From Desulfuromonadaceae bacterium (GTDB lineage Bacteria; Desulfobacterota; Desulfuromonadia; Geobacterales; Pseudopelobacteraceae), in assembly GCA_028687585.1 (NCBI GenBank), contig JAQTZV010000014.1:24718-88717 (forward strand): a stretch of 64,000 nucleotides of DNA, in the 5' to 3' direction. Shown in pieces: positions 39,343 to 57,523 of the stretch (positions are counted from its first letter, which is position 1; every line of letters starts with the position of its first letter). The translations under genes were made by a program, and so were the position numbers. The notes under the pieces were generated by a model, which had not been told where the DNA came from, searched no databases, and saw only the letters and a program-made list of their open reading frames with translations.

Positions 39343-39383
39343 GATAGGTGGTATACTGTCTAAAACAGAAAAGGAGATTCCGT

Positions 39384-39935: not shown

Positions 39936-39943
39936 AGTAACCT

Positions 39944-41230: not shown

Positions 41231-41368
41231 GGTGCAATCCTGTGATTCTGCAGAGATCAAAATAGTGGTGGGCTCTATTTCGGCAAGTATAATTAAAAAT
41301 AGTCAAAAAACATATGGATAATTTTTGCCGGTTTTAATAATGCGTTTTGCATCCCAGTGCAACGCACA

Positions 41369-41393
41369 CAAAAAAGGCGACATTTCTGTCGCC
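41369..41393 (-). terminator. Intrinsic terminator downstream of the 565-aa dehydrogenase gene
   Basis: GGCGACA-TTTC-TGTCGCC stem (41376-41393), followed on the minus strand by a T-run. Confidence 0.7.
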
Positions 41394-41423
41394 TTTCAGA
41401 TCCTTCTTGAGTAAAGTAAGTTG

Positions 41424-43121
41424 TTATCCCGCCATCTCATATACCCCGTTCAAGCTGTACACATACCGTTGCAGAACCGTCTGATATCGTGATTCATCAA
41501 CGTGTGACTTGCGCACAAGCTTCATGCAGTACGCCATCTGTGCCTCTGTGCTGGAAGGTTTGCTGTACAACTGCAGGGCGAACTTTGACAAATCCCGCAC
41601 CATGAAATCGAAAATCTGGTCGACAACTGCTTCATCGGTGGCAAGCAGGGTTGCGTTTTCAAGGATCAACTGGCCATAGACCACCAGGGTGAAAATCTCT
41701 CCGACGGTCAGCAGGAAGTCGATATCCTTCTGCTGCCCCGCATCCGGTGTTGCCTTTACCAGGAACTCGCGAAACACGCCGATCTGCTCTGTGAAGATTC
41801 TGACATTGGGAAGGGCGCTCCCTACATAAGCCGGACGGTAGTCGTGGAAGCGTACTTTGCCGAGCCCCTTGGTTGCGCCCTGATTGAAGAGAAAATCGTC
41901 GTTGGTCGCTTCGAGGCGGCGCGGCACGGCGGTGTATTCTGACGGATTGAAGAAGTAATTTTGCATGAACTTGACGATCAGCGCGATGTTGACATGCACG
42001 GTCCCTTCAAGCTTGGGAAGCGCCCTGATGTCGCGGGCTGCCGTGTCGAAATACATATCCTTCTCAAACCCCTTGGCCGCGATCACATCCCAGAGCAGGT
42101 TGATTACCTCTTCCCCCTGAGTTGTTACTTTCATTTTTACCACCGGATTATATAACAGGTAACGGCGGTCTTCGGCCGAGGCGCTCCGCATATAGTCAGA
42201 AGCACGCATGGCAAAGAGTTTCATGGCGACCAGACGGGCATAGGCATCGACGAACATCTGCTTCACATGGGAGAAGTCAGTGACATGCATGCCGTAGAGG
42301 CTGCGTGCCGATGCGTGATTGATCGCCTCGTAGAAGGCGTGGGTGCAGATGCCGATGGTGGCCCAGCCAAGATTGTATTTGCCGATATTGACGGTGTTGA
42401 GCGTTGCGTTCCAGGCGTCATCGCCTGTTGACAGGATGTCGGCTTCCGTCACCGGATAGTCGTGCAGATTGAATTCGGCTACATAGGATTGGGTGGCGGT
42501 GATGTTCTTGGCCAGCTCGTACTGCTCATGCTTGCTGTTAACGACAAAAAAGACGTATTCGCCGCCATCCGGTTTGCGTCCGAAGGTCGAAACCATCGAC
42601 GCTTCATTGCCGTTGCCGATGTAGTATTTGTCGCCCCGTGCCAGATAACTGCCGTCAGCCTGCGGAATCAGCAGCATGTCGCTCGCGTAGATGTCGGCGC
42701 CATGCTCCTTCTCCGACAGGCCGAAGGCGAAGATCGCACCGTCGTCAAGTAATTGTGCCGCTTTCCGCTTCAACTCCTCGTTGCCGCTCATCCAGATCGG
42801 TCCGAGCCCCAGAATGGTCACCTGCCAGGTATACCAGTAACAGAGGCCGTAAAAACCGAGCAGCTCGTTGAAGGCACAGAGACGAGAGGTGTCCCAGCGG
42901 CAGTCGCTGCCGCCGTAGCCGGCGGGTGTCAGCAGGGTGGCAAAGATCCGCTCCCGCTTCACGAAGTCGAGAAAATCGGCATACCAGGCCCGGTTCAGGT
43001 CGTCTTCCTTGAGCTGCTTCTTTCCCTTCGTTTCAAAAAACGCGACGGTCTTGCGGAGCATGTCGTTCAACACCGGATCGGGATGGTTTTCTATCAGTTG
43101 TTTCGGATTGAGCAGGAACAT
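41424..43121 (-). CDS. Long acyl-CoA dehydrogenase-family protein
   Basis: 565 aa with an overall ACAD-like layout. Placed in a beta-oxidation cluster and separated by 3 nt from the upstream Fe-S gene. Confidence 0.7.
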   Translation of the reverse strand: MFLLNPKQLIENHPDPVLNDMLRKTVAFFETKGKKQLKEDDLNRAWYADFLDFVKRERIFATLLTPAGYGGSDCRWDTSRLCAFNELLGFYGLCYWYTWQVTILGLGPIWMSGNEELKRKAAQLLDDGAIFAFGLSEKEHGADIYASDMLLIPQADGSYLARGDKYYIGNGNEASMVSTFGRKPDGGEYVFFVVNSKHEQYELAKNITATQSYVAEFNLHDYPVTEADILSTGDDAWNATLNTVNIGKYNLGWATIGICTHAFYEAINHASARSLYGMHVTDFSHVKQMFVDAYARLVAMKLFAMRASDYMRSASAEDRRYLLYNPVVKMKVTTQGEEVINLLWDVIAAKGFEKDMYFDTAARDIRALPKLEGTVHVNIALIVKFMQNYFFNPSEYTAVPRRLEATNDDFLFNQGATKGLGKVRFHDYRPAYVGSALPNVRIFTEQIGVFREFLVKATPDAGQQKDIDFLLTVGEIFTLVVYGQLILENATLLATDEAVVDQIFDFMVRDLSKFALQLYSKPSSTEAQMAYCMKLVRKSHVDESRYQTVLQRYVYSLNGVYEMAG

Positions 43122-43124
43122 GGG

Positions 43125-44333
43125 TTACTCCTTAATAATTGGTATGGTTTTACCGGTCGGTTTCCCGAGGAAGAGGCCACGCAGACTTTTCTTGATGCCG
43201 CTGACGACAAACGGTGCCAGGCGGCGCTTCTCCTTGAGGATGCGGATGAACAGATCCTTGCGCTTCAACGGCGGTGTCTCCCGGTTGGCGACCGGAACCA
43301 TCGAGAGCGCGCCAAGCTTGCAGGCGGTTACACAGGCGCCGCAACCGAGGCAGATCTCTTCATCAGCCACCGCGTAGCGGTCGCTTTTCTGTGAAAACGT
43401 CACTCCCTGCGGCAGGGCGATAGCCTTGACGTTGCAGGCACGGAAGCAGAGACCGCAGCCGCTGCAGCGCTCCCGGTCGATAACGGCGCGGAAACCGGTT
43501 TTAGCGACTCCCGTATGGTAGCCCATCTGCACCCCGGCCAACAGTTCGCAGCAGCAGCTGCAGCAGTTGCAGATGAACGATGGCTTGTGACGTATATTGT
43601 CGGTAATGTGCGTCAGGTTCAGCGCTCTGGCGCTTTCAAGCACCGCCAGCAGTTCATCAACGCTCTTCTCCCGGGCAAAGCCGCGCCGTGCCATGAAGCG
43701 GGCGGCGCTCCCGAGCGAAATGCAGATGCCATCAGTTGGCGCTCCTTTGTCACAGGTTTCGCCGAGATGCTCTTTCTTGTGGCGGCAGTAGCACATCCCG
43801 ACCGCGCCGAATCCGGCCTCACGAATGATGTCGCGGGCTCGGTCATAGCTGGTGACTTCCGAGGTGACCGGGATATGCTCTTCATAGAGCAGCGAGCGGG
43901 TCAGCGGCGTCTTGCCACCGAAAAACTCCGCTGCCTGGCTCTCTTCAAGATATTCCCGCATCAACAGCGCAAGACGCGGGAGTGGCAGATCGGCACGGTT
44001 CTTCATGAATGTGAACTCGAAGAAACCGATCAATCCCGGCAGCAGCAGGTAATAGACTTCGTCGCCATAGGGCATATCCATCACCAGCCCCTTGTCGGCC
44101 ATCTTCTCCAACAGTGATTGCAGCTCGTCCGCCGGTATCTTTGTCAGTCGCACCAGTTCCGGCAGAGTCGCCTCCTCCAACGGAAAACGGGATGCGACAA
44201 AGGCTTCCCGTTCATCAAAGAGGAGCGCCAGAATCTCGCGCAGTTTGTCCGTGTCCACGAGTCCAATCGGATATTTGTTGAGCCGGTCGATCAGCGGCAC
44301 GATACTGCTTTTAGAACCGAGGTGATGTCCCAT
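43125..44333 (-). CDS. Fe-S protein: Cys-rich core (MCYCRHK..C, CNCCSCCC) plus 2x[4Fe-4S] ferredoxin domain
   Basis: CNCCSCCC at 43548-43571, and CSGCGLCFRAC / CLGCGACVTAC ferredoxin motifs. Confidence 0.7.
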   Translation of the reverse strand: MGHHLGSKSSIVPLIDRLNKYPIGLVDTDKLREILALLFDEREAFVASRFPLEEATLPELVRLTKIPADELQSLLEKMADKGLVMDMPYGDEVYYLLLPGLIGFFEFTFMKNRADLPLPRLALLMREYLEESQAAEFFGGKTPLTRSLLYEEHIPVTSEVTSYDRARDIIREAGFGAVGMCYCRHKKEHLGETCDKGAPTDGICISLGSAARFMARRGFAREKSVDELLAVLESARALNLTHITDNIRHKPSFICNCCSCCCELLAGVQMGYHTGVAKTGFRAVIDRERCSGCGLCFRACNVKAIALPQGVTFSQKSDRYAVADEEICLGCGACVTACKLGALSMVPVANRETPPLKRKDLFIRILKEKRRLAPFVVSGIKKSLRGLFLGKPTGKTIPIIKE

Positions 44334-44434
44334 GGCATATTCCTTTAGGAACTGTAAATAAATGGCTTGGTTAATATTGCGCTCAGACGCTCAGATTCGG
44401 GTTATCTTTGACCGACCTTCAATCACCAAATCCC

Positions 44435-45217
44435 TTAGTCAAATTTTGTGAAATCCGGTTTTCTCCGCTCCATAAATGCCTGCAGTGCCTCGGCCGCTTC
44501 CGGCGATTTGAGCCGTGCCATGAATTGTGCCCCCTCTTCGGTGATGGTTTCCCGCAGCTCTGCTGCATAATCCCGCTTGAGAAGACTCTTTGCCAGACGC
44601 ACCGCGGCCGCCGGTTGGGCCGCAAGTTGCAGGGCACTGTTTCGTGCGGTGGGGAGAACATCCCCGTCCGGGCAGACAGCGGTTACAATTCCGACGGCAC
44701 AGGCTTTGTCCGAGCTGAATACTTCGCCCAGGAGCAGCAGTTCTGCTGCCCGCTGATGCCCCATGATACGCGGCAAAAGCAGTGTTGATCCCGCTTCCGG
44801 GCAGAGTCCCAGGTTGACAAACGGCATCTGGAAGGTGGCGCTGCTCCCGGCATACACCAGTTCGCAATGCAGCAGCATGGTGACGCCGACCCCGACCGCC
44901 AGACCATTGACCGCCGCCACAATCGGCTTGCGGGTCTCGCTGACGGCGATCAGAAACTGCATGACCGGACTGTTTGCGCCGGTTGGCGGCGTTGTGAGGA
45001 AGTCGGCCAGATCGTTGCCGCTGGTGAAGCAGTCATCACAGCCGCAGATCAGGATTACCCGGACCTCGGTATCACTGTCCGCCTCTGTAAGGCCATCAGC
45101 CAGGGCCTGATACATGGCCAGATTGAGGGCGTTTTTCTTGTCGGGGCGGTTGATGCGAAGCGTTAAAATGCCGTCGCTGAATTCGCTGTGGATATGTTGT
45201 GCGCTGCTCATGCTCAT
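44435..45217 (-). CDS. Enoyl-CoA hydratase/isomerase
   Basis: Crotonase fold motifs FTSGNDL and AAVNGLAVGVGVTMLLHCEL. Confidence 0.85.
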   Translation of the reverse strand: MSMSSAQHIHSEFSDGILTLRINRPDKKNALNLAMYQALADGLTEADSDTEVRVILICGCDDCFTSGNDLADFLTTPPTGANSPVMQFLIAVSETRKPIVAAVNGLAVGVGVTMLLHCELVYAGSSATFQMPFVNLGLCPEAGSTLLLPRIMGHQRAAELLLLGEVFSSDKACAVGIVTAVCPDGDVLPTARNSALQLAAQPAAAVRLAKSLLKRDYAAELRETITEEGAQFMARLKSPEAAEALQAFMERRKPDFTKFD

Positions 45218-45235
45218 AGTGACTGCTCCTTTGAG

Positions 45236-45622
45236 TTACGCCATCGCCTTGATGATTTCCGGAATTGCTACCGTTTTGCCCTTGATGCTGTCAAAACAGA
45301 CCATTGTGGTGCGGGCCGTGGCGTAGGTTTTGTCCTGGTCGTCATGAAGCCGATATTCCAGGTCGAAACTTGATCGTCCTGTTTTTGCTATCCAGAGCGT
45401 AACGATGACAGTGTCATAGAGTGTGATCGGGATCTTGAAGTCGCATTCCGCACGTGCGACAAGCGTGAAGATGCCATGCTGCGTGACTTCCCTGAAGAAT
45501 GCATTGAATAGCTTGACCCGCGCTGTTTCCAGATAGGTGAAGTAGATGGCGCTGTTTACGTGGCCATAGGCGTCAAGGTCGGAAAAACGTAATTCAATGC
45601 TGGTTGAGTATGTCTGCGGCAT
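45236..45622 (-). CDS. Acyl-CoA thioesterase (4HBT/YbgC-like hotdog)
   Basis: ELRFSDLDAYGHVNSAIYFTYLE motif. The ATG pair at 45625/45622 follows AAGGAG. Confidence 0.7.
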   Translation of the reverse strand: MPQTYSTSIELRFSDLDAYGHVNSAIYFTYLETARVKLFNAFFREVTQHGIFTLVARAECDFKIPITLYDTVIVTLWIAKTGRSSFDLEYRLHDDQDKTYATARTTMVCFDSIKGKTVAIPEIIKAMA

Positions 45623-46541
45623 CATAAACTCCTTCTTTGTAAGCGTCCTGTTGAAGCCATTCGAGCACTTCAGGAAAATGGTCGTGTATGGCATCGGGGT
45701 GGGTAAGCATGCTTATGTGGTCATAGTCGTGCAGATTACCGTTGGTGCGGGAGAGCACCGTATAGCGGCATTGCTGTCTGCCGGCGGATTTCATAAAATC
45801 CTGCACATCACGCGGGTGCCCGAGGACATGGTCGTTTTCTGCGGCAATATACCAGATCGGCGGGAGGGATATCTTCTTTATGGCCGCGCCATAGTCGAAA
45901 CCATTGTCGGAATCTATCCAGGCGTCGTGTTTTACCCAGGCCGCGCTCTGCCGGTATGACTTGACCGTTTCGCTGTCGGAGCCTATGCGAAGCCACCGCG
46001 CCGGGAGATAGCCGGCAACGAGGCATGACAGCGGGCAGAGCAGCTTCCAGACCAGTTCCACCTTGAAAATTCGCTCGAAGCTCCAGACCCGTATGGTTCG
46101 TTTGCTCCCGAAATATACCAGCGAACGAACCAACTCCGTGTACTCGGGAAATCGTGCCAAAACGGAGGAGAAAAGGACACCGCCCCACGAATGCGCCACC
46201 CACTGCTGCGGAACCGGGCCGCGCAGCCGTTTTATCGCTTCGACGCATGCCGGAATATCTTCGCTAATCGCCTCGGTCTGGCCGAAACGCGAGCTCCGCT
46301 TGATAGGCGGTCTGCTTTTGCCGCGTCCGCGCAGGTCGGCAACATAGACGTCAAAGCCGTTGCGCGCCAGAAAAGGCGCCAGACCCTTTCCTGATCCTGA
46401 GTAGAATATGCGGCCGTTTTCGATGGCGCCGTGCAGCATGAGAACCGGCGGTCCCGATTCCGGACCGGTAAACCGCTGAAGGTTGAGAATGTCACCGCCC
46501 GACAGTGGCACCGGTATTGATTGCTGCCGAACAGTCCGCAT
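45594..46541 (-). CDS. Alpha/beta hydrolase
   Basis: LMLHG oxyanion region and AHSWGG nucleophile elbow. Confidence 0.7.
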   Translation of the reverse strand: MRTVRQQSIPVPLSGGDILNLQRFTGPESGPPVLMLHGAIENGRIFYSGSGKGLAPFLARNGFDVYVADLRGRGKSRPPIKRSSRFGQTEAISEDIPACVEAIKRLRGPVPQQWVAHSWGGVLFSSVLARFPEYTELVRSLVYFGSKRTIRVWSFERIFKVELVWKLLCPLSCLVAGYLPARWLRIGSDSETVKSYRQSAAWVKHDAWIDSDNGFDYGAAIKKISLPPIWYIAAENDHVLGHPRDVQDFMKSAGRQQCRYTVLSRTNGNLHDYDHISMLTHPDAIHDHFPEVLEWLQQDAYKEGVYDAADILNQH

Positions 46542-47098
46542 TACTCCTTGCCGAGCATCCCTTTTTTGAGCGAGTCATCAGCCGGTTTTTCGCCGAGATA
46601 GATGGCGAGAACACCCTTGGCAAGTTTGGTGGAGGGAACGTTGCCCAGTGATTTTCCGTTATGACTGACTGAAACGCTACCGTCGGCTGAAAGAATCAGA
46701 TCAACGATATCGCCCTTGATAAAATCAACGGTAAAGAGTGATAAAAATTTTTTTACTTCAGGAGAGCCAATCAGATCAGGTGCATTGTTAGCCAGGCCCT
46801 CACCAAATATCTCGGTCATCTTCTCTTTTTCTATCTTTGAGTGCAGAAGGTTTATTCTGATTAATTTGTCTCCAATGTCCAACAGCGCTTCAGAGCCTGT
46901 AGAAAGACGTTTGTTGGAGTACAGTGAGCCGACATAAATCTTTACGAACCACTTCTTCCTGATTCCGGAACCGTTCAATTTCAGTTGCTGGCTGTTTACC
47001 GTTACGGTTGGATCCAGCTTCACCCCGGCTACTTCAACGGCATGTGACGGGGCGGTACATAACAGTGTCAAAACAAGTGCCACAAAAAGTTTTTTCAT
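46541..47098 (-). CDS. Periplasmic chalcone-isomerase-like (fatty-acid-binding fold) protein
   Basis: Signal peptide, then VAGVKLDPTV...LKLNGSGIRKKWFVKIYVGSLY, recalled from the CHI-like family. Confidence 0.55.
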   Translation of the reverse strand: MKKLFVALVLTLLCTAPSHAVEVAGVKLDPTVTVNSQQLKLNGSGIRKKWFVKIYVGSLYSNKRLSTGSEALLDIGDKLIRINLLHSKIEKEKMTEIFGEGLANNAPDLIGSPEVKKFLSLFTVDFIKGDIVDLILSADGSVSVSHNGKSLGNVPSTKLAKGVLAIYLGEKPADDSLKKGMLGKE

Positions 47099-47121: not shown

Positions 47122-49125
47122 TCAGCCGATCTCGCGACTGGCAATAAAGCCCTGATGAACGGCATCAAAAACCATGGCAGGCTGCAGAGCGTCACCTGCA
47201 ACCCTGAACGGAATGCCGCTTGCGGCAACCAGCTCCTGAAGCGGGTTGTGCGAGCGTGTTCCGACGGCCAGCACAACAGTGTCGGCAGCGATCTCCTCGA
47301 TACTCCCTTCGCATTCAATTGTTACGTACCCGGCAGTTATCTCAATCACCCGGGCTGCAGTACGGGTCTTGACGCCATATCGTTCCACATCCTGGATCAT
47401 CCCCCAGCGGGTACTTTTGCCGAAGTTTTTGCCCAGTTCACCCAGCATTTCAATTACCGTGACATCCTTGCTGCCCCGAGTTGCCAGTCCGTACAAATCA
47501 TCAACAGATTCGGCCCCATGAACGAGCAGAAACTTGAGTGCTTCGCCGGAAAGTGTGCCTTTCTCTGCAAGGAACAGCGCGGTTTCTACGCCAACCGCAC
47601 CGCCTCCGATTACCAACACTCTTCGCCCTGTTACGACAGCATCAGTCAGGACATCCCAGGCCTGGACAACATGCGGCAGATCGGCGCCCGGCACCGGCAG
47701 TGTGATCGGCAGTCCGCCGGTGGCAATAATAATCGCATCGGGCCTGGTCTCCTTGAGAAACTGCTCATTGACGCTTGAGCCAAGTACGACCGTGGTGCCG
47801 GATAATTCCACTTGTCGCTCCAGGTCGGCGGCCAGCTCAAGAAACTCTTCGCGTCCCGGAGGAGCCCCCGCCAGCAGAAGCTGTCCACCGAGGTGGTCGC
47901 CAGCTTCGTGGAGCGTTACCCGGTGCCCTCGCTCAGCCGCCGAGATTGCGGCGCTCATTCCGGCCGCTCCGCCGCCGATAACGGCAATATTCAGCGGGTG
48001 GTCGGTTTTGCTGCCCGCCCGTGATCGCTCATACCCTGCGCGAGGGTTGCAGAAACACTCCACCGCCATCATTTTGAACAGGTTGTCGAAACAGCCCTGA
48101 GCGCAAGCCACACAGTGAACGATGTCAGCTTCATGCCCGCTGCGCGCCTTTTCCGGAAAGAAGGGGTCAGCGATCAGCGCCCGCCCGACGGCCACCATAT
48201 CGCACAGACCATCGGCTATCATTTCACGGGCCAGATCCGGGTCATTGATGCGATGACTGGCGATGACCGGAATAGTGACGCGCTCCTTAATGCCGCGGGC
48301 CAGGTAACCAAAGACGCCGCGCGGCACTTCGGTAACGATCTGTGGTACCTGGGCTTCGTGCCAGCCGACGTTTATGCAGAGCGCATCCACACCGGTTTCT
48401 GCCAGACGGACGGCGTATTCCTGAAGATCCTGACGGCTGGAACCACCCTTCATGAATTCGTTGCCGTTCATTCTGACCAGCAGCGGAAACTCTGCACCTA
48501 CCGCAGCGCGGACGGCAGCAATCACTTCCAGGCCGAAACGGATACGCCCCTCAAAAGCGCCGCCATAGCGGTCCTCCCGTTTGTTGGTGAGCGGCGAGAG
48601 GAATTCGCTGATCAGATAGCCGGTGCCGGAGAGGATCTCTACCGCATCGAAGCCGGCCTCCTTGACCCGTTCGGCCGCCCGGACAAAGCGTGTGATGATC
48701 TCTGCTATCTCCGGTATTTCAAGCTCGTGGGGAGTTTCGCGGGTCAGTCGTGAAGGGATTGCCGATGGCGCCACCGGCTGTTTGCCGCCGGTCAGCATCG
48801 AATGGTTATAGCGTCCGGCATGGTTAAGCTGAACTGAGGAGCGGGCGCCATTATCGCGGATAGCGGTTGCCAGGCGCGTCAACCCGGGGATATAGATATC
48901 TTTGTGGGCACCGATATTGCCGGGATTTCCGGAGAGTTCATCAATGGTAGCATACCCTACCGTTATCATGCCGGCTCCGCCGCGTGCCCGCTCGGAGTAA
49001 AAGTCAACCAGCCGGTCACCCACTGCATAATTTCCTGCCATATTCATATGCATGGCCGGCATGAAGATACGGTTTTTTACCTCCATCCGGTTGATGGTAA
49101 TCGGTTGAAAAAGCGGGTCGATCAT
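47122..49125 (-). CDS. 2,4-dienoyl-CoA reductase-type NADH:flavin oxidoreductase (OYE domain plus FAD/NAD domain)
   Basis: OYE-like N-terminus (NRIFMPAMH..., CVACAQGC Fe-S motif) and VIGGGAAGMSAA dinucleotide fold. ATG 49125 with a GGGAGA SD. Confidence 0.85.
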   Translation of the reverse strand: MIDPLFQPITINRMEVKNRIFMPAMHMNMAGNYAVGDRLVDFYSERARGGAGMITVGYATIDELSGNPGNIGAHKDIYIPGLTRLATAIRDNGARSSVQLNHAGRYNHSMLTGGKQPVAPSAIPSRLTRETPHELEIPEIAEIITRFVRAAERVKEAGFDAVEILSGTGYLISEFLSPLTNKREDRYGGAFEGRIRFGLEVIAAVRAAVGAEFPLLVRMNGNEFMKGGSSRQDLQEYAVRLAETGVDALCINVGWHEAQVPQIVTEVPRGVFGYLARGIKERVTIPVIASHRINDPDLAREMIADGLCDMVAVGRALIADPFFPEKARSGHEADIVHCVACAQGCFDNLFKMMAVECFCNPRAGYERSRAGSKTDHPLNIAVIGGGAAGMSAAISAAERGHRVTLHEAGDHLGGQLLLAGAPPGREEFLELAADLERQVELSGTTVVLGSSVNEQFLKETRPDAIIIATGGLPITLPVPGADLPHVVQAWDVLTDAVVTGRRVLVIGGGAVGVETALFLAEKGTLSGEALKFLLVHGAESVDDLYGLATRGSKDVTVIEMLGELGKNFGKSTRWGMIQDVERYGVKTRTAARVIEITAGYVTIECEGSIEEIAADTVVLAVGTRSHNPLQELVAASGIPFRVAGDALQPAMVFDAVHQGFIASREIG

Positions 49126-49138
49126 GGTTCTCTCCCAG

Positions 49139-50074
49139 TTATGTAATGGCCTCATACGGTACGCTCACCTGATCAAACAGCCCGATCTGTTCCAGAGAAG
49201 CTTTGAGCCGCGTCGGGTCATCCAGAAAATCAAGCATGAACACAATTTCAGACACTTTCAGATAGACGAAAAATGGATCGACCAGCTTTCCCTTGAAGAG
49301 TTGCTCTACTATGTTGTTCAGTGCCAATCCTCTGAACGGGAGCAGTTGGACAACACGCTCCAGCAAAGTCCTGACGTAGAAAAGAAGGGCATCATCAACA
49401 GATTCGACAGAGCGGCGGTGTCCCGGCATGATAGACCTTCCGCGGAGTTGCACGAGGTTGAGCAGAGAGCTGCAGTAGGCATCATAATTTCTGAACCGTC
49501 CGGTAAAACTTTCCAGATCGATATCAAGCAGGGGGGCCTGGAAGATGTTCCGGAGCAGGATGTCCCCGGTGACTGCCGATCCACCGACCAGATATACCAG
49601 ATCACTCTGGGAGTGGCCCGGGCAGGGGAGGTAGCTGATGCCGAGCCGGGCCAGCACATCACATTCTTCTACAATACGGAATCGCTCCGGAATGGCGGGG
49701 AATACCTTATTGCGCTCAAACGATTCCCGTAACTGAACGGCAAAATCGCCTCCAAATCCGCATCCGCCGAGAAGTTCTACCATCCGCTCCATCCGCTCTG
49801 CGTGTCGTTGAAATTTGATGGCATCGCTTCGCGGAATATATATTGCTGCATCACTCTGCTGAAGAATAAAGTTGGCCAGTCCGTAGTGATCCACATGGCA
49901 ATGAGTGATACAGACGTGTTTCAGGCGTTTGAGATCGATCTCGTCACGCAGGCAGGCCTCTCCCTCGGGCGTTGGCGGGCCGGTGTCGAAGAGCACCAGC
50001 TCGCCGTTTAGTTCTACGCTGTAGAAGTGAACCTCACCAACTATGTAGGGTGTTTGTACGGTGTGCTGGCGCAT
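49139..50074 (-). CDS. MBL-fold metallo-hydrolase
   Basis: THCHVDHYG metal-binding motif. Confidence 0.8.
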   Translation of the reverse strand: MRQHTVQTPYIVGEVHFYSVELNGELVLFDTGPPTPEGEACLRDEIDLKRLKHVCITHCHVDHYGLANFILQQSDAAIYIPRSDAIKFQRHAERMERMVELLGGCGFGGDFAVQLRESFERNKVFPAIPERFRIVEECDVLARLGISYLPCPGHSQSDLVYLVGGSAVTGDILLRNIFQAPLLDIDLESFTGRFRNYDAYCSSLLNLVQLRGRSIMPGHRRSVESVDDALLFYVRTLLERVVQLLPFRGLALNNIVEQLFKGKLVDPFFVYLKVSEIVFMLDFLDDPTRLKASLEQIGLFDQVSVPYEAIT

Positions 50075-50088: not shown

Positions 50089-51867
50089 TTAATAAAAATA
50101 TTTATCCGCTTCGATCGATGCTGCCGCCAGCAGGCGTTTCGCCTTGAGCAGTCCGGTCGCATCGTACTTGGTAAATCTGCGGATGCCGGCCAGCAGCATG
50201 GTCAGGGTGTCACCCTCTTCGATGAAGTAGGCGGCCCGGCGTGCGGCGGAGGCGGCTTTTTCTGTGCCGTTGAAGGTGAATATCTTCACGGCGGCGCTGA
50301 TGGAAGCCTTTTTGCCTTCGCTCAGTTTCGGCATGATCTTCTCGGCGCGCAGTACGGCGCTTTCGATGGCAAAGATGTTGATTGCCAGGTCGGCAACCGC
50401 CAGCAGGATCTCCTGCTCATCCTTGATTTTATCCATAAACTTCTGTACGCCGCTGCCGGCAAGAACCAGGAACGCCTGCTTCAGGTTGGCGACCAGCGCC
50501 TTCTCCGCAGCAAATGGAACAGAGTCGTCAAGCTCATCAAACGATGGTGACATCAGCGATTCGAATGCCTTCATCGCCTCTTTCTGGAGCGGGATTTCCC
50601 CTTTCATGGCGCGGCGGAGAATAATGCCGGGGATCAGCAGGCGGTTGATCTCGTTGGTCCCTTCCCAGATCCGGTTGATGCGTTCGTCACGATAGTACCC
50701 TTCTGCGGCGTATTCCTGGATGAAGCCGTATCCGCCATGAATCTGGACAACCTCATCGACGACATCCGCCAACACCTCACTGCAGAAAACCTTGGCAATG
50801 GCGCATTCTACCGAATATTCCTCGATGCCCTGCTGATAGGCCTCATAATAGTCGTCGGTTCCTTTCGCTACGGTCGCGAGACGATCGTCAATGAGACCGG
50901 CCAGGCGGTAGACAACCGATTCAGAAGCGAAGATGAGGGCGCTCATGTCGGCTATTTTTTCCTGAATAGCGCCGAATGTGCCGATCGTTACACCGAAAGC
51001 TTTTCGCTCATTGGCATATTTGATGCCGGTGGTAAGCGCGGTTTTAGCGGCGCCGGTTGCGCCTGCTCCCAGTTTGAAGCGGCCGACATTGAGGACATTG
51101 AAGGCGATTTTGTGCCCTTTGCCGATTTCGCCCAGAAGGTTCTCAACCGGTACTTTCGCATCTTCCAGAATGATCTGGGTGGTTGATGATCCTCTGACGC
51201 CCATTTTGTTCTCTTCCGTCCCGACGCTCAGCCCTTCGGTTGTCCGCTCAACCAGGAAGCCGGTGAAGTGCTGTTTGTCGATCTTGGCAAACACGGTATA
51301 GAAATCGGCGATGCCGCCATTGGTGATAAACTGTTTGGTGCCGTTCAGGATATAGTGTTTGCCGTCCGGAGAGAGAACTGCGGTTGCGGAGGCGCCAAGC
51401 GCATCGCTGCCGGAGCCCGGCTCGGTCAGGCAGTAGGCGGCAATCCATTCGCCGGAAATGATCTTGTGCAGATACTGTTCCTTCTGTTTTTTGGTCCCGT
51501 AATAAACCAGCGGCAACGTGCCGATACCGGTATGAGCCGAGTAGGTCACGGAAAACGAGCCGGCCTGGGCCAGCTTCTCAGCCGCCAGCATGCTGGTCGC
51601 CTTGTCAAGTTCCAGCCCGCCATACTCCTCGGGCGCATCGATCATGAGCAGTCCAAGTTCGCCGCACTTCTTCATCAATTCGACGGTCAGGGGAAGATCG
51701 TGATGTTCAATCGCTTCGCGCTGCGGGATAACTTCATTCAGGACGAACTGCTCGGTGGTATCGCCGATCTGGCGCTGTTCGTCTGTAAAGTCCTCCGGTG
51801 TGAAAATGTCATGTTTATCAGCTTCTGTAATCAGATATTCGGCGCCTTTGAATAGTTTTGCGGACAT
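50089..51867 (-). CDS. Acyl-CoA dehydrogenase (long, about 590-aa type)
   Basis: CLTEPGSGSD and IHGGYGF ACAD motifs. Confidence 0.9.
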   Translation of the reverse strand: MSAKLFKGAEYLITEADKHDIFTPEDFTDEQRQIGDTTEQFVLNEVIPQREAIEHHDLPLTVELMKKCGELGLLMIDAPEEYGGLELDKATSMLAAEKLAQAGSFSVTYSAHTGIGTLPLVYYGTKKQKEQYLHKIISGEWIAAYCLTEPGSGSDALGASATAVLSPDGKHYILNGTKQFITNGGIADFYTVFAKIDKQHFTGFLVERTTEGLSVGTEENKMGVRGSSTTQIILEDAKVPVENLLGEIGKGHKIAFNVLNVGRFKLGAGATGAAKTALTTGIKYANERKAFGVTIGTFGAIQEKIADMSALIFASESVVYRLAGLIDDRLATVAKGTDDYYEAYQQGIEEYSVECAIAKVFCSEVLADVVDEVVQIHGGYGFIQEYAAEGYYRDERINRIWEGTNEINRLLIPGIILRRAMKGEIPLQKEAMKAFESLMSPSFDELDDSVPFAAEKALVANLKQAFLVLAGSGVQKFMDKIKDEQEILLAVADLAINIFAIESAVLRAEKIMPKLSEGKKASISAAVKIFTFNGTEKAASAARRAAYFIEEGDTLTMLLAGIRRFTKYDATGLLKAKRLLAAASIEADKYFY

Positions 51868-51916: not shown

Positions 51917-52041
51917 AACCACCCCCAACCCCTCCTTTAGTAAGGAGGGGAGCCCTACCAAAAGTAAGCGCTTTTAAGCGAAATAAGAGGGGGAGAATAA
52001 GCTCCCCCTCCTTCCTTTAAGGAGGGGGCTGGGGGGTGGTT
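51917..52041. repeat. GC-rich compound palindromic (REP-like) intergenic element
   Basis: AACCACCCCC (51917-51926) pairs with GGGGGTGGTT (52032-52041). Inner hairpins are CCCCTCCTT-TAGT-AAGGAGGGG and CCCCCTCCTT-CCTTT-AAGGAGGGGG. Confidence 0.8.
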
Positions 52042-53212
52042 ACACCTTCTCAAAAATACCGGCAGCACCCATGCCGCCGCCGATACACATGGATATCATG
52101 CCGTAACGGGTATCCGTTCGCTGCATCTCCTGGAGGATACCGGCGGTCAGTTTCGCGCCGGTACATCCAAGCGGGTGGCCAAGCGAAATGGCCCCGCCGT
52201 TCACGTTGACCCGCGCGGGATCTATGCCAAGCTCCTTGAGGCAGGCGAGTGACTGGGCTGCAAAAGCCTCATTCAGTTCAATCAGGCCGATGTCGTCCAG
52301 GTTCAGGCCGGCAAGTTTCAGCGCGGCAGGAATTGCTGCCACCGGGCCGATTCCCATCAACTCGGGCGGCACCCCTTTAACGGCAAAGGCGACGAAACGG
52401 GCCAGCGCCTTTTTACCAATCTTTTTAAGATAATCTTCCGATACCACCAGCACCGCAGCCGCTCCATCAGTCATCTGGGAGGTGTTTCCGGCGGTAACCG
52501 TTCCGGTTGCCTTAAAGGGCGGTTTCAGCTTTGCAAGGCCGGCGACCGTTGTATCACCACGCACTCCATCATCGGCGTCGACCAGCTCTGTACTTCGTTT
52601 CATCTTCCCGTTGATTAATTGGCAGTTCTCTATCTCCACCGGAATAATTTCATCCTTGAATTTCCCTGCAGCGATGGCAGCGGCAGCCTTGGCGTGGCTC
52701 GATGCGGCAAAAGCATCCTGCTGTTCCCGGGTGACGCCGTATTTCTCTGCGACAAGCTCCGCAGTAATACCCATGGAAGCAAATGCTTCCGGCCAGCTGG
52801 CCATCAGAGATGGGTTGGCGCTGTATTTCCCGCCGCCCATCGGAATCATGCTCATGCTCTCGGCGCCGCCGGCAATAATGCAGTCGGCAAATCCGGCCAT
52901 AATCCGTTCTGCAGCGGTCGCTATCGTCTGCAGGCCGGAGGAGCAGAACCGGTTAACCGTCTGGGCGGGGACTTCGACCGGCACGCCGGCCTTCATTGCT
53001 GCCACGCGAGCAAAGTTCATTCCCTGCTCTGCTTCGGGGAAGGCGCAACCGATAATGATATCTTCAACGTCGTGCGGATCAATACCGGTTCTCTCCAGCA
53101 GTCCCTTGATAGCGATCGCTGCGAGATCGTCCGGCCGGACATCTTTCAATTTTCCTTTTTTTGCGCGGCAGCCGGGGGTGCGGTAGGCGGCCAGAATATA
53201 TGCATTTCTCAT
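52040..53212 (-). CDS. Acetyl-CoA C-acyltransferase (thiolase)
   Basis: NRFCSSGLQ active-site Cys and C-terminal CIGGGMGAA. True start is ATG 53212 (MRNAYIL) after GGAGG. The 62 upstream codons of the track ORF read through a repeat element. Confidence 0.9.
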   Translation of the reverse strand: MRNAYILAAYRTPGCRAKKGKLKDVRPDDLAAIAIKGLLERTGIDPHDVEDIIIGCAFPEAEQGMNFARVAAMKAGVPVEVPAQTVNRFCSSGLQTIATAAERIMAGFADCIIAGGAESMSMIPMGGGKYSANPSLMASWPEAFASMGITAELVAEKYGVTREQQDAFAASSHAKAAAAIAAGKFKDEIIPVEIENCQLINGKMKRSTELVDADDGVRGDTTVAGLAKLKPPFKATGTVTAGNTSQMTDGAAAVLVVSEDYLKKIGKKALARFVAFAVKGVPPELMGIGPVAAIPAALKLAGLNLDDIGLIELNEAFAAQSLACLKELGIDPARVNVNGGAISLGHPLGCTGAKLTAGILQEMQRTDTRYGMISMCIGGGMGAAGIFEKV

Positions 53213-53236
53213 TTTTTCCTCCGTATGTGTTGTGTT

Positions 53237-53293
53237 GTAGGGGCGAATCTTGTATTCGCCTCGGCTGCGGGCGATCACAAGGATCGCCCCTAC
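53237..53293. repeat. REP-like palindromic element GTAGGGGCGA...TCGCCCCTAC
   Basis: Terminal 10-bp inverted repeat enclosing two hairpins (GGCGAAT...ATTCGCC and GGGCGATC...GATCGCCC). Confidence 0.75.
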
Positions 53294-53303
53294 AGCCGAC
53301 GCA

Positions 53304-55691
53304 TTAATTCCGCAGCGGCTTACCTTTCTTGAGCATATGTTGAATCCGCTCCAGCGTCTTCTTCTGTCCGCAGAGGCGTACAAAGGCCTCCCGTTCAAGA
53401 TCCAGAAGATACTCTTCGGTGATCAGGGTTCCGGCAGGAACATCCCCGCCAGTGATGACATCAGCAACCATGCCGGCCAGATACTGGTCATACTCGGAGA
53501 TGAAACCGCCTTGCTGCATATTCCAGAGCTGCGATTTGATGGAAGCGGCAACGCTGCGGCCCGGTGCTTTCAAGTCGGTCAGTGGCCGGGCGGGGCGATA
53601 GTTGGCAGCCAGCGAGATCGCCTTCAGCTTGGCGTCATGGATGCGTTTGTCGATATCCATGGTAATGGCGTCCCCTTGACGCATAAAGCCCATCGGTCCA
53701 AGCTCTGCCGCCGACATACTGACCTTGGCCATGGCAATGTTCATGAAGTTTTTGAAGATGAACGGGGTTGCATCCATTTCATATTCTTCTGCCAGCTTGA
53801 TGGCGCGAATCGCCATCTCCTTGGTGCCGCCACCTGCCGGGAGCAGGCCAACGCCCAGTTCCACCAGGCCCATGTAGGTTTCGGCGTGAGGAATGATCGC
53901 ATCGGAATGCAGGCAGGTTTCACAACCGCCCCCCATAACAAGATTGTGCGGAGCGGCCACGACCGGGATCTTCGAGTATTTGAGCGCTATCATCGCCTTT
54001 TGGAAACCTTTGACCGTCATGGCAATTTCGTCATACGCCCCTTCGGCGACCGCCATAACCAGCAGCATCAGGTTGGCGCCGGCGGAGAACATGGCTCCTT
54101 CATTGGCGATGACCAGGCCAACGCCATCTTCTTCTGTCCGTTTGACCGCCTTATGCACCATGGAGAGGATTTCGCCACCGATGGCGTTCATCTTGGTATG
54201 GAACTCGAGGCAGAAAACACCGTCGCCGAGGTCGATTACGGAAGCGCCGCTGTTCTTTTCCACGACGTTGTTATTTCTTTTGAGGATTGAAAGGCTGATG
54301 TGTCCCGGTTTCTGCGGCACTTCGCGGTATGTGCCATCAAGAACGTTATAGTAGTAATTACGGCCGTTTTCGAATTTGTAGAAATGCTCGATTGTTTTCA
54401 GTCCGGCCGGAACCGGGATGCCGTCCTTTTCAGCCCGCTCTACAAAATAGGCGACACCGATCGCATCGAGCATCTCAAACGGACCAAGTTCCCAGTTGAA
54501 GCCCCACTTCATGGCATTGTCAATGTTGACGATATCGTCGGCTATTTCCGGAATCCGGTTGAAGGTATAGATCAAGGTGTCACGCATATTGGCCCAGGCA
54601 AACTGTGCCGCCTTGTCGCTGCCGGTGACGAGCGCCTGCAGACGTTTGGCCGGATCGTCGATCGACTTTGCCGCTTCTATGGAGGCGAACTTGGGACGCT
54701 GTGAAGGCGCATATTCTCCGGTTTTATAATCGTAGTAGAAAAATTCTTGCCCCTTATCTCCTTTGACCTTCTTGAAAAAGCCCTGCCGACTCTTGTTGCC
54801 GAGCAGTCCTTTAGAGACCATTTCGCCGACAAAAGCAGGGAATTTGAAAATATTGCGCTGCTCATCATTGACCAGCAGTTCGTAGGAGTTATTGGCTACA
54901 TGCTGGAGGGTATCGATGCCGACCAGGTCGGCGGTACGGAAGGCCGCGCTTTTGGGGCGGGCGGTGGCCGGTCCTGCGATGGCATCAACCTCTTCAACAG
55001 TCATGTCACTCGCTATCATAGTGCGTACGCAGTTGCAGATCGCGTATACCCCGATGCGATTGGCGATGAAGTTGGGGGTGTCTTTGGCGTAGACAATGCC
55101 TTTGCCGAGACGCTTGGCGATGAAGTCGGCCATAAAGGCGGTGACCGCAGGGTCGGTAGCCGAGCAGGAGACGATTTCCAGCAGGCGCATATAGCGTGGC
55201 GGATTGAAGAAATGGGTGACCAGAAAATTCTTGCGGACATGTTCCGGCAGGCATTCAGCCATCTCGTTGACGGAGAGGCCGCTGGTGTTCGTGGAAAGGA
55301 TTGCCCCCTCTTTGAGGTTCGGCACAACCTTTTCGGTGAAGAGCTTCTTCTTGATCGCCATGTTTTCAATGACGACCTCAACAACCCAGTCGCACTCCTT
55401 GAGTTTTGCCATATCATCGTCAAAGTTTCCGACTTCGATGTTTCCGGCATAGCCCGGCAGAAAAAACGGGGCCGGCTTCATCTTTATCAGCCCGCCACGT
55501 CCGGCGGCGGCGATGCGGTTGCGCACCGTGCGGTCGGTGATGGTGAGTCCTGCTGCGCTCTCGGCATCGCTCGGTTCCCGCGGCACGATATCCATCAATA
55601 GCACCTGAATTCCTGCATTGGCAAGGTGTGCGGCGATAGTTGCCCCCATCACCCCCGCTCCCAGCACTGCTACCTTGGTAATCTGTTTCAT
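53304..55691 (-). CDS. Bifunctional 3-hydroxyacyl-CoA dehydrogenase / enoyl-CoA hydratase (FadB-like)
   Basis: N-terminal VAVLGAGVMGATIAAH Rossmann fold and a C-terminal crotonase-like domain; 795 aa. Confidence 0.9.
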   Translation of the reverse strand: MKQITKVAVLGAGVMGATIAAHLANAGIQVLLMDIVPREPSDAESAAGLTITDRTVRNRIAAAGRGGLIKMKPAPFFLPGYAGNIEVGNFDDDMAKLKECDWVVEVVIENMAIKKKLFTEKVVPNLKEGAILSTNTSGLSVNEMAECLPEHVRKNFLVTHFFNPPRYMRLLEIVSCSATDPAVTAFMADFIAKRLGKGIVYAKDTPNFIANRIGVYAICNCVRTMIASDMTVEEVDAIAGPATARPKSAAFRTADLVGIDTLQHVANNSYELLVNDEQRNIFKFPAFVGEMVSKGLLGNKSRQGFFKKVKGDKGQEFFYYDYKTGEYAPSQRPKFASIEAAKSIDDPAKRLQALVTGSDKAAQFAWANMRDTLIYTFNRIPEIADDIVNIDNAMKWGFNWELGPFEMLDAIGVAYFVERAEKDGIPVPAGLKTIEHFYKFENGRNYYYNVLDGTYREVPQKPGHISLSILKRNNNVVEKNSGASVIDLGDGVFCLEFHTKMNAIGGEILSMVHKAVKRTEEDGVGLVIANEGAMFSAGANLMLLVMAVAEGAYDEIAMTVKGFQKAMIALKYSKIPVVAAPHNLVMGGGCETCLHSDAIIPHAETYMGLVELGVGLLPAGGGTKEMAIRAIKLAEEYEMDATPFIFKNFMNIAMAKVSMSAAELGPMGFMRQGDAITMDIDKRIHDAKLKAISLAANYRPARPLTDLKAPGRSVAASIKSQLWNMQQGGFISEYDQYLAGMVADVITGGDVPAGTLITEEYLLDLEREAFVRLCGQKKTLERIQHMLKKGKPLRN

Positions 55692-55711: not shown

Positions 55712-57523
55712 TTAATTGCTGTGGTCTAAGTACATATCTTCTATGCGATGCTTGTACTTTTCATAAATAATTTTGCGTCTCAGTTTCAGTGTCGGGGTTA
55801 ATTCACCACCCTCAATGGAAAAATCGTGAGCCAGCAGCACAAACTTCTTGATGGTCTCGTACGGGGCAAGACGGCTGTTGATATCAGCGAGTCGCTGCTC
55901 GAAAAGTTTGTTAACCTGCTCATTCATGACGAGATCTTCCATCTCGAAATAATGGAGATGATGCTCTTTGGCGAACTCCAGCATTCTCTCCATGTTGGGC
56001 ACAATCAGAGCGGTAATAAACGGTTTGCGATCGCCGTACACGTAAGCAGAGGAGACGTACTTTATCATCTTCAATTCATTCTCTATCGGCTGAGGAGCGA
56101 TGTTTTTGCCTCCTGCAGTAATGATGAGCTCCTTCTTGCGATCAGTGATAAACACGAAGCCATCTTCGATATGTCCGATGTCGCCGGTTTTGAACCAGCC
56201 TTCCTGGATCGCTTCAGCCGTTGCTTCCGGGTCGTTATAGTATCCGAGCATGATCTGCGGACCCTTTACCAGGATTTCACCATCTGGGGCGATTTTGAAC
56301 TCGGTCTTCGCCAGTGGAAATCCGACCGAACCGAAGCGGATATGTTCAAAATTATTGAACGATATGGCCGGACTGGTTTCGGTCAGGCCATACCCCTCGA
56401 AAATCGGAATTCCGATAATCCAGAAAAATTCATTGATGCTTTTGTCCAAAGGAGCGCCGCCGGAGCAGAACAATTTCATCCTGCCGCCGAACTTTGCCCG
56501 TACCTTGCTGAAAATAAGTTTATCTGCCAGAGCATATTTAAAGTTGAGCAGTGAGGAGGACTGCTTGTGGATATACGTTGCGGCAACATACTGCTTGCCG
56601 ACTTCAACCGCCCAGTGGAAAAGCGCCTTCTTGGCTGACGGCATTTGGTGAGCAGTCTCAAAAATCCGGTGATAAATCTTTTCAAACAACCGTGGGACAC
56701 TCACCATAACGGTTGGCTGGATTTCAAACATATTATCGGGGACTTTTTCAATGCTGTCGGCAAACGCCATCAGAGCGCCATTGCGGATCGTCATGTAGTA
56801 GCCGGCAGTCCGTTCAAGAATGTGACTTAAGGGGAGAAAACTCAGCAGCACATCGTTCTTATTGATCGCGCCGCTCTGCTCAGTCAGGTATTGGGTGTTG
56901 GTCAGAATGTTATTGTGGGAAAGCATGACCCCCTTCGGTACTCCGGTAGTGCCGGACGTATAGATCAGCGTCAGCATATCCTCCGGTTTGATCATGTCGA
57001 TTTTCGCTTCAATTTCCTTCTTTTCTTCAGCCGTTATGGGTGAATCAATTTCGGAGAGCTGGTAGAAGGTGGTGACCGGCAGGCTCGGGTCCCCCAAAAA
57101 ACGTTCGAATGAAACAACCAGCTGCAGCCCCGGAATTGCTTCTCTGACTTTGAGCAGCTTGCTGTATTGGAACTTTCCTGACACAAAAATTATTTTGGCG
57201 CCTGAATGATTAACCATATATTCGATCTGCTCGGGGGTGTTGGTTGGATAGATCGGCACAGTAACGCTGCCGGTGCAGAGAATTCCCATGTCAGCGATAA
57301 CCCAGCCGGCCCGGTTTTCCGAGAGGATGGCAATCCGGTCTCCCTGCTTGATACCCATCTTGCCGAGTCCTCGTGCCACCATCAACGCCCGCTCATAGTA
57401 CGCGGCGTATGTCAGGGTGACAAATTCCCCTTGCTTGCGGTACTTGAGAGCCAGCCGGGAACTGAATTCTCTGGCATTGCTTCTGAGCATGTCTGGTATA
57501 GAGCGATACGTTTGAGTGCCCAT
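55712..57523 (-). CDS. Long-chain fatty acid-CoA ligase (AMP-forming)
   Basis: IYTSGTTGVPKG AMP-binding motif and GWFKTGD. Confidence 0.9.
   Translation of the reverse strand: MGTQTYRSIPDMLRSNAREFSSRLALKYRKQGEFVTLTYAAYYERALMVARGLGKMGIKQGDRIAILSENRAGWVIADMGILCTGSVTVPIYPTNTPEQIEYMVNHSGAKIIFVSGKFQYSKLLKVREAIPGLQLVVSFERFLGDPSLPVTTFYQLSEIDSPITAEEKKEIEAKIDMIKPEDMLTLIYTSGTTGVPKGVMLSHNNILTNTQYLTEQSGAINKNDVLLSFLPLSHILERTAGYYMTIRNGALMAFADSIEKVPDNMFEIQPTVMVSVPRLFEKIYHRIFETAHQMPSAKKALFHWAVEVGKQYVAATYIHKQSSSLLNFKYALADKLIFSKVRAKFGGRMKLFCSGGAPLDKSINEFFWIIGIPIFEGYGLTETSPAISFNNFEHIRFGSVGFPLAKTEFKIAPDGEILVKGPQIMLGYYNDPEATAEAIQEGWFKTGDIGHIEDGFVFITDRKKELIITAGGKNIAPQPIENELKMIKYVSSAYVYGDRKPFITALIVPNMERMLEFAKEHHLHYFEMEDLVMNEQVNKLFEQRLADINSRLAPYETIKKFVLLAHDFSIEGGELTPTLKLRRKIIYEKYKHRIEDMYLDHSN

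Follow-up and report, generated by a model that had tools for sequence, protein, structure and literature searches.

A ten-cysteine iron-sulfur protein encoded beside an acyl-CoA dehydrogenase in a beta-oxidation operon: a putative redox relay that is not a dedicated ETF substitute

Introduction

The stretch of DNA analyzed here (the window; 64,000 nucleotides of contig JAQTZV010000014.1 from a Desulfuromonadaceae bacterium) carries on its minus strand a gene for a 402-aa iron-sulfur (Fe-S) protein, which is followed after a gap of 3 nt by the ATG of a 565-aa member of the acyl-CoA dehydrogenase (ACAD) family, designated ACAD565 in the following. Both genes belong to a beta-oxidation operon without genes for the electron transfer flavoprotein (ETF), and an earlier note, made from the sequence alone, had therefore proposed that the Fe-S protein is a dedicated electron acceptor or relay for ACAD565. 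Does the Fe-S protein indeed serve this dehydrogenase, and if so, exclusively?

The answer that we favor, and that we regard as quite possible though short of probable, is an electron-relay protein recruited into an operon for unsaturated fatty acids, with ACAD565 as a facultative client and ETF as the default acceptor. The 402-aa protein would be an electron-transfer protein with several Fe-S clusters, either soluble or peripheral, from a large uncharacterized family, a clade of which (type A) would have been recruited, in Desulfuromonadia-type bacteria, into an operon for beta-oxidation of long-chain/unsaturated fatty acids. There it would most likely act as redox relay for the flavoenzymes of the operon, its ferredoxin domain and Cys-rich module forming a wire with as many as four clusters, and an acidic winged helix-turn-helix (wHTH) domain and a basic tail may provide docking surfaces. 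ETF and CCG-type Fe-S oxidoreductases, encoded elsewhere, would still provide the default path by which electrons of ACADs reach the quinone pool. The Fe-S protein and ACAD565 are probably redox partners, for which direct contact and a direction of electron flow are presumed.

Results

A ten-cysteine domain in a large family of Fe-S proteins

The gene pair and the parts of the Fe-S protein are as follows.

43125..44333, minus strand: Fe-S protein gene, 402 aa, from the list of open reading frames (ORFs); 'type A' ortholog of an unnamed family
41424..43121, minus strand: ACAD565 gene, 565 aa, an apparently deep-branching acyl-CoA dehydrogenase with a C-terminal extension of ~180 aa (Pfam)
43122..43133, minus strand: junction AAGGAG-TAA-CCC between the Fe-S gene and the ACAD565 gene (sequence)
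44004..44258, minus strand: winged-helix-like N-terminal domain, residues 26-110 (fold match; Pfam TrmB in relatives)
43494..43916, minus strand: central alpha/beta domain, residues ~140-280, with ten conserved Cys (alignment of 81 members)
43722..43793, minus strand: first Cys block, C181-x-C183-R-H ... C194 ... C204 (translation)
43548..43571, minus strand: second Cys block, CNCCSCCC, i.e. C255, C257, C258, C260, C261 and C262 (translation)
43299..43487, minus strand: 2x[4Fe-4S] bacterial ferredoxin domain, residues 283-345 (Pfam Fer4, Fer4_7, Fer4_21)
43128..43319, minus strand: basic C-terminal tail after the last cluster Cys (charge, hydropathy)

Both ORFs lie exactly where the earlier note had placed them, and the two motifs it had singled out, CYCRHK..C..C and CNCCSCCC, translate as it had read them. 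Across the junction the sequence is AAG GAG TAA CCC ATG, i.e. the Shine-Dalgarno motif AAGGAG of ACAD565 consists of the two codons that precede the stop of the Fe-S gene and lies 7 nt 5' of the ACAD565 start. Therefore, both genes appear to be translationally coupled in this genome.

The ferredoxin domain, also recognized by the earlier note, exceeds the Pfam cut-offs (Fer4: 41.4 bits, cut-off 21.1; Fer4_7: 38.5 bits, cut-off 27) and contributes eight cysteines in two cluster motifs (C290, C293, C296, C300, C328, C331, C334, C338). Its matches in the PDB are the ferredoxin domains of FwdF, HdrA and PorD, with VIA-align Z up to 10.2. This canonical module is shared with FwdF/FwdG of formylmethanofuran dehydrogenase, the C-terminal ferredoxin domain of HdrA, PorD and NuoI (E 1e-15 to 1e-5, Z 8-10), and the likeness suggests a single-electron relay role for the Fe-S protein as well. 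Unlike these proteins, it carries ~280 N-terminal residues (wHTH and ten-Cys domains) and a basic tail, which are without counterpart there.

In the alignment of 81 family members, which has a mean column identity of 28%, eight cysteines of the central domain do not vary at all (C181, C183, C194, C204, C255, C257, C258, C262). The other two, C260 and C261, are retained in at least 90% of the members, as are all eight of the ferredoxin domain, and R184 is nearly invariant. As judged from this alignment, the conservation of the cysteines is not due to chance. Together, the ten cysteines of the central domain probably ligate two additional Fe-S clusters or else a single, unusual one.

Residues 1-280 are covered by no Pfam or NCBIfam model, and NCBIfam yielded solely sub-threshold matches to the ferredoxin domain, such as RsxB with 41 bits vs. 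a cut-off of 281. A profile of the central domain retrieved no PDB entry at E<=10. An AlphaFold2 model of the whole protein, computed from 81 diverse relatives, reached a pLDDT of 93.2 and a pTM of 0.91. With the whole protein, Foldseek returned no PDB match at E<=0.001, and VIA-align matched the wHTH and ferredoxin domains only. When the central domain was isolated (model pLDDT 74.6), Foldseek likewise gave none at E<=0.001, and the best VIA-align Z was 4.8, with 0 of 48,161 chains at Z>=5. GNAT-like and FliM-like rows obtained for this domain (Z<=4.8) lie below the noise level quoted for the tool and were not accepted as homology.

Dense conserved cysteines are likewise a property of HdrB and other CCG proteins, and HdrB uses ten cysteines to bind two noncubane clusters. 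The motifs differ, however, being CxCRH..C..C..CNCCxCCC here and CXnCCGXmCXXC there, and PF02754 does not match at E<=0.01; an HdrB-like chain is missing from the results of the fold searches, for which the model of the central domain was of moderate quality. More generally, ETF (PF01012/PF00766), ETF:quinone oxidoreductase (ETF-QO; PF05187) and CCG (PF02754) domains are absent from the 402-aa protein at E<=0.01 and from the 81 members at E<=0.001. HdrB-type cluster sites are also the model for an alternative to the relay, in which the Fe-S protein is an autonomous oxidoreductase. Here, the ten-Cys domain would be a catalytic site for a small substrate, electrons would be supplied by the ferredoxin domain, and placement in the operon would reflect co-regulation or a side reaction in lipid/CoA metabolism with no electron exchange with ACAD565. 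Conservation of the ten cysteines across phyla is what an active or cofactor site would show, but no substrate-binding feature was identified in the protein and no fold relative hints at such a chemistry.

The family is large and occurs in Bacteria as well as Archaea: a search with the N-terminal 280 residues retrieves 1,604 representative clusters, formed at 50% identity, with E<=0.001, and 746 when the threshold is tightened to E<=1e-10. Database names of its members are '4Fe-4S binding protein' or 'ferredoxin', and the nearest clusters in the ESM Atlas are all generic ('4Fe-4S dicluster' or 'hypothetical'). Relative P0121, which is 63% identical over the full length (N-terminal 280 aa: E 1.8e-131), bears the NCBI/UniRef name 'Uncharacterized di-4Fe-4S ferredoxin domain-containing protein, DVU0498 type'; this label comes from one source, and the comparison was with this one labeled relative. 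DVU0498 is not named in the main text of the literature searched, and supplementary Table 5 of a transposon study in D. vulgaris lists it as a putative iron-sulfur cluster-binding protein and does not flag it as essential (PMC10102598). Listed literature matches to the motif strings CNCCGCCC, CNCCSCCC and CXCCXCCC concern, judged by title, DNA motifs or primers, and searches on the CCG domain/noncubane clusters, ACADs, Geobacter Fe-S proteins and dienoyl-CoA reductase returned ETF/EtfD and genome papers only. Fused forms of the family were not found at E<=1e-5 among proteins of 705-2010 aa, which is weak evidence, and six longer or odd members (432-587 aa) have no informative additional Pfam domain. 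Since there is no Pfam/NCBIfam model, PDB relative or naming paper, the family counts as uncharacterized as far as the libraries reach, which agrees with the earlier note, whose author had not recognized the CNCCSCCC family as functionally characterized. Fe-S electron carriers as such are well known; in our view the most notable result is a large unmodeled, probable Fe-S domain with ten cysteines and no structural relative.

A paralogous subfamily (type B; 34-40% identical, frames of ~430-500 aa, e.g. G106:C1:980473-981582) occurs widely in the class. In one genus (g17), each of the 19 genomes has a match, mostly at 34-40%, and at E<=1e-40 the window's genome has no type B gene.

An acidic winged helix and a basic tail

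Residues ~26-110 adopt, in the model, the fold of ArsR/SmtB, MarR and TrmB regulators: VIA-align scored Z 7.5-8.4 to wHTH chains of the ArsR/SmtB/MarR type, including CzrA and SmtB, and Pfam detects TrmB in five and MarR in one of the 81 family members. At the other end of the protein, residues 351-402 have a net charge of +11, close to the median of +10 for type-A tails (63 sequences, ~52 aa); a transmembrane-like stretch is not seen in the tails of these 63 sequences (best 19-aa hydropathy: median 0.31). Winged helix and basic tail together would suit a redox-sensing regulator, whose wHTH domain binds DNA and whose clusters sense the redox state to control the operon. In contrast to the regulators, however, the wHTH domain is acidic on its surface (net charge -9; family median -4) and fused to three cluster-binding modules, and the would-be recognition helix (helix 3; net charge -3, family median -2) has conserved E70, E76 and D80 and no conserved Lys/Arg. 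Because of the net acidic domain and the Glu/Asp in place of Lys/Arg, binding to DNA is unlikely as far as can be judged from sequence. Known Fe-S sensors carry far fewer clusters than the up to four supposed here. Moreover, the gene resides inside the operon in translational coupling with an enzyme gene, and a separate MerR regulator is encoded nearby at 38744-39142. We thus hold a regulatory function for very improbable.

ACAD565, a putative active enzyme on a deep branch of the ACAD family

ACAD565 is assigned by Pfam through Acyl-CoA_dh_1 (57.9 bits, cut-off 22.4), whereas Acyl-CoA_dh_M stays below its cut-off (25.9 bits vs. 33.3) and Acyl-CoA_dh_N does not match. The best relatives in the PDB are ACADs (top E values 1e-20 to 1e-22, best hits in one search 1e-20 to 1e-13; spanning residues ~20-385), and residues 390-565 (~180 aa) have neither a Pfam nor a PDB match; for the C-terminal part, the ESM Atlas offered weak leads only (0.78-0.89) to C-terminal domains of ACOX/ACAD proteins. 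One codon deserves a line of its own:

42006..42008, minus strand: codon of E372, at the position of the catalytic Glu of the ACAD 'YEG' motif (alignment to 5jsc, 5idu and 5lnx)

E372-G373-T374 are invariant in 32 ACAD565 orthologs. Because E372 aligns with the catalytic Glu and is invariant, ACAD565 is likely an active dehydrogenase or reductase, to judge from these alignments. The core at residues ~20-385 and the Glu at YEG are shared with long ACADs (VLCAD/ACAD9 type, 2z1q, 3owa) and with short ACADs/enoyl-CoA reductases (Bcd, CarC), and extra helical length at the C-terminus is a feature of the long ACADs as well. Unlike known ACADs, ACAD565 shows weak similarity throughout, with an N-terminal domain unseen by Pfam, a middle domain below cut-off and an unmatched C-terminus, and by this sequence evidence it is placed on a deep branch of the family.

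Distribution of both genes and of their neighbors

Each protein was used to search 301 genomes of the same class, applying thresholds for orthology set by us (Fe-S protein: E<1e-140 or >=58% identity; ACAD565: E<=1e-100; FadH-like reductase of the operon, OYE type: E<=1e-150). The genomes are related, and the resulting counts are descriptive, with no statistical test. Type-A Fe-S orthologs were found in 68 genomes, ACAD565 in 31 and the FadH-like reductase in 71.

Conservation of the gene pair, as considered in the earlier note, holds from one side. The Fe-S ortholog is present in 26 of the 31 genomes with ACAD565, both genes being located within 200 bp in 21 of these 26, within ~1 kb in two and on separate contigs in three. 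Adjacency survives a change in gene order, which is Fe-S then ACAD565 in families f1-f3 and ACAD565 then Fe-S in f7, f8 and f20. In three of the five genomes that have ACAD565 without a Fe-S ortholog, ACAD565 sits at a contig edge. In a set of 80 loci from the species collection (55 type-A, 25 distant), ACAD565 is next door in 24 and the FadH-like reductase in 26 of the 55 type-A loci; among five further genomes reached via the loci, one has ACAD565. Type-A genes without ACAD565 often stand in other fatty-acid contexts, such as ECH-FeS, VLCAD-MBL-ECH-FeS or FadL-MBL-FeS (ECH, enoyl-CoA hydratase/isomerase; MBL, metallo-beta-lactamase-fold protein).

From the side of the Fe-S gene the pair does not hold, and here the observations gather that weigh against a relay serving beta-oxidation. 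ACAD565 is missing from 42 of the 68 genomes with the Fe-S ortholog, and 21 of the 68 lack ACAD565 and the FadH-like reductase alike. Two genomes, G057 (100% complete) and G273 (87%), have the order OYE-ECH-ACAD565 followed by unrelated genes, and no type-A Fe-S gene in the assembly. Relatedness of the genomes means that the counts overstate independence. Several type-A genes without ACAD565 adjoin unrelated genes, encoding for instance an aminotransferase, an FKBP or a GGDEF protein, and type-A orthologs at 55-71% identity occur without fatty-acid context in Holophagaceae (L049-L055), Nitrospinota (L042/L059) and Chromatiaceae. A further difficulty lies in energetics: [4Fe-4S] clusters of the ferredoxin type are usually much lower in potential than the acyl-CoA/enoyl-CoA couple, and therefore atypical clusters would be needed to accept electrons from an ACAD. 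Complex prediction for the Fe-S protein and ACAD565 scored 0.00 in two runs without controls, which speaks neither for nor against binding.

A frameshifted Fe-S gene following ACAD565 in G057 and G273 was considered and rejected, as BLASTP detected no similarity and the ORF in G057 encodes an Exo_endo_phos protein.

The same distribution speaks for an autonomous oxidoreductase. The wider family is mostly stand-alone: genes of the operon are nearby in 0 of the 25 distant loci (33-39% identical), whose neighbors are functionally unrelated. In a quick maximum-likelihood tree all type-A sequences form a single clade, set off by a long branch (SH-aLRT 100). Genes next to the ACAD, genes in other fatty-acid contexts and genes in unrelated surroundings are intermingled within this clade, the label 'ACAD565-adjacent' changing at least six times. 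This alternative does not explain why adjacency is so tight, irrespective of gene order, whenever ACAD565 is present, nor the translational coupling seen here, and we consider it possible but doubtful. The distribution also speaks against the proposal that the Fe-S protein is dedicated to ACAD565: to the 42 genomes without ACAD565, the unrelated contexts of all 25 distant relatives and the two genomes with ACAD565 only, a congener (G228) adds the locus MBL-CHI-ECH-FeS-HDOD (CHI, chalcone-isomerase-like protein), again without ACAD565. ACAD565 depends on the neighborhood of the Fe-S protein far more than the reverse.

The spread of type-A genes over purple sulfur bacteria, Nitrospinota and Acidobacteriota suggests that the Fe-S gene moved horizontally on its own. 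One such ortholog, with no fatty-acid genes nearby, belongs to the purple sulfur bacterium Thiohalocapsa halophila (L043). A contig labeled Dongiaceae (Pseudomonadota; L012) contains the whole block OYE-CHI-TE-ECH-FeS-ACAD565 (TE, thioesterase) at 63-88% identity to the window and clusters with Geobacteraceae in the tree; the contig was probably mis-binned, and a transfer is less likely. In two congeners (L100:6464-8180; L101:7439-7837; cf. window 38744-41260), a MerR regulator gene lies just 3' of the Fe-S gene and ACAD565 is absent; in L100, a gene for a DUF4388-HDOD-HD protein is likewise located just downstream of the Fe-S gene. Since both loci keep the flanks without ACAD565, the latter looks inserted or lost between fixed flanks.

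ETF genes in this genome and in the class

The earlier note was right that the cluster is devoid of ETF genes: the window's contig has none, and all ten PF01012 matches in the genome fall on other contigs (C33, C35, C22 and C8). ETF-QO (PF05187) was not found in the genome. As an argument for a dedicated acceptor the absence is of no avail, because the ten matches make up about five alpha/beta pairs, and no more than 3 kb from four of these lies a gene for an Fe-S protein with CCG domain, ~660 aa long in three cases and ~430 aa in the fourth, an arrangement reminiscent of EtfD/EMO (C33:10169-14255, C33:16879-20926, C22:4601-8014, C35:56728-59492). In the G. metallireducens genome paper, etf pairs beside Fe-S proteins are hypothesized to form the connection between ACADs and the respiratory chain (PMC2700814), and the layout described there is the one seen in the window's genome.

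Among the other genomes with ACAD565, 27 of 30 have ETF, with etf genes 3-15 kb from the gene pair in five. In the class, ETF is present in 239 of 301 genomes, and in 63 of the 68 that possess the Fe-S ortholog. Because of the latter figure, we conclude that the Fe-S protein accompanies ETF and does not replace it, and replacement was rejected at the level of the class. The Fe-S protein is not a dedicated ETF substitute. That it takes the place of ETF for ACAD565 in particular would agree with the 3-nt gap and shared Shine-Dalgarno sequence, with the 26 of 31 co-occurrences, with the contig lacking etf and with two genomes of one genus, G015 and G017 (100% and 99% complete), in which ETF alpha/beta (PF01012, PF00766) was not detected, 8,000 bases of each having been outside the search and large enough to hide etf. 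Each of the two holds ten ACAD-domain (PF00441) matches as well as ACAD565, the Fe-S ortholog and the FadH-like reductase (e.g. G015:C57:138181-142060). Set against the ETF pairs of the window's genome, the presence of ETF in most other ACAD565 genomes, and against Fe-S genes without ACAD565 and ACAD565 without Fe-S gene, we judge this to be improbable.

If the relay reading favored here is right, the Fe-S protein would resemble ETF (EtfAB) with ETF-QO or EtfD/EMO in that it takes electrons from an acyl-CoA dehydrogenase. It differs from them in lacking a flavin-binding ETF domain, an ETF-QO or CCG domain and a transmembrane stretch, and in being encoded in a genome that has ETF/CCG proteins, too. 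Direct electron exchange with ACADs, if true, would provide a flavin-free route beside ETF that couples beta-oxidation to anaerobic respiration; if there is none, the family still represents a sizable gap in the annotation of Fe-S proteins.

The operon and its 2,4-dienoyl-CoA reductase

Transcription of the beta-oxidation operon runs on the minus strand from the acyl-CoA synthetase gene (first) to ACAD565 (last), with the Fe-S gene in penultimate position. Upstream of the gene pair the following genes are found, in order of coordinates.

44435..45217, minus strand: ECH, directly upstream of the Fe-S gene (Pfam ECH_1)
45236..45694, minus strand: 4HBT thioesterase (Pfam)
45594..46541, minus strand: alpha/beta hydrolase (Pfam)
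46541..47098, minus strand: chalcone-isomerase-like protein (Pfam)
47122..49155, minus strand: FadH-like 2,4-dienoyl-CoA reductase, 677 aa, with OYE FMN domain and FAD/NAD(P) domain (Pfam Oxidored_FMN, Pyr_redox_2)
49139..50074, minus strand: MBL (Pfam)
50089..51867, minus strand: VLCAD-type ACAD, 592 aa (Pfam)
52040..53398, minus strand: thiolase (Pfam)
53304..55691, minus strand: FadB-like 3-hydroxyacyl-CoA dehydrogenase/hydratase (Pfam)
55712..57523, minus strand: acyl-CoA synthetase (Pfam)
58057..59379, plus strand: FadL-type outer-membrane fatty-acid channel, divergently transcribed (Pfam Toluene_X)

The reductase is a regular companion of ACAD565: both occur together in 29 of the 31 ACAD565 genomes, all three genes in 25, and Fe-S ortholog and reductase in 46. 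Loci of the Desulfobulbales type repeatedly show a module OYE-(small gene)-ACAD565-FeS, in which the small gene encodes a DUF4442 protein. Since ACAD565 is nested within genomes with the FadH-like reductase, it may belong to the part of the pathway that deals with even-position double bonds, a substrate assignment that the distribution suggests. A passage of PMC12691678 gives it as established that 2,4-dienoyl-CoA reductase is required for such double bonds. That the Fe-S protein is repeatedly found with a dienoyl-CoA reductase and a deep-branching ACAD in metal-/sulfur-cycling anaerobes offers a testable handle on function.

This companionship invites a more specific proposal, namely that the Fe-S protein carries electrons from ACAD565, converting 4-enoyl-CoA to 2,4-dienoyl-CoA, to the FadH-like reductase, in a redox-neutral bypass sparing NADPH and ETF. 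Besides co-occurrence and the recurrent module, the presence of all three genes in one operon, alongside an ECH of the enoyl-CoA isomerase type, is consistent with it. The reductase, however, keeps its own FAD/NAD(P)-binding domain and can therefore do without an external donor; a reductase ortholog is missing from 22 of the 68 Fe-S genomes and a Fe-S ortholog from 25 of the 71 reductase genomes, and the substrate of ACAD565 is itself a supposition. We see little likelihood in this proposal. An unlikely but far-reaching extension would make the ten-Cys domain a new Fe-S site (two clusters, or one larger/noncubane) on a fold without solved relative, and the Fe-S protein a flavin-free, ETF-independent ACAD partner that wires ACAD565 to the FadH-like reductase, by which even-position double bonds would be processed in a redox-neutral loop without NADPH or ETF.

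Further observations on the locus

ECH is located directly 5' of the Fe-S gene not only here but also in 15 related loci (L009-L015, L039, L041, L045, L056, L065, L095, L100, L101). A scan of 41000-45400 for promoters and terminators revealed nothing exceeding the shuffled expectation. A 195-aa ORF at 39348-39935 (plus strand) has a signal-peptide-like N-terminus, a repetitive charged C-terminus rich in Arg/Lys/Glu/Asp and no Pfam match, and a 778-aa ORF at 59426-61762 (plus strand), directly 3' of the FadL gene, is without Pfam match at E<=1e-5. Within the operon, ORFs overlap by ~100 nt at thioesterase/alpha-beta hydrolase (45594-45694) and at thiolase/FadB-like gene (53304-53398). As tblastn matches of relatives mostly start at residues 17-29, the actual start of the thioesterase is probably an internal Met near residue 24-25, as predicted from sequence.

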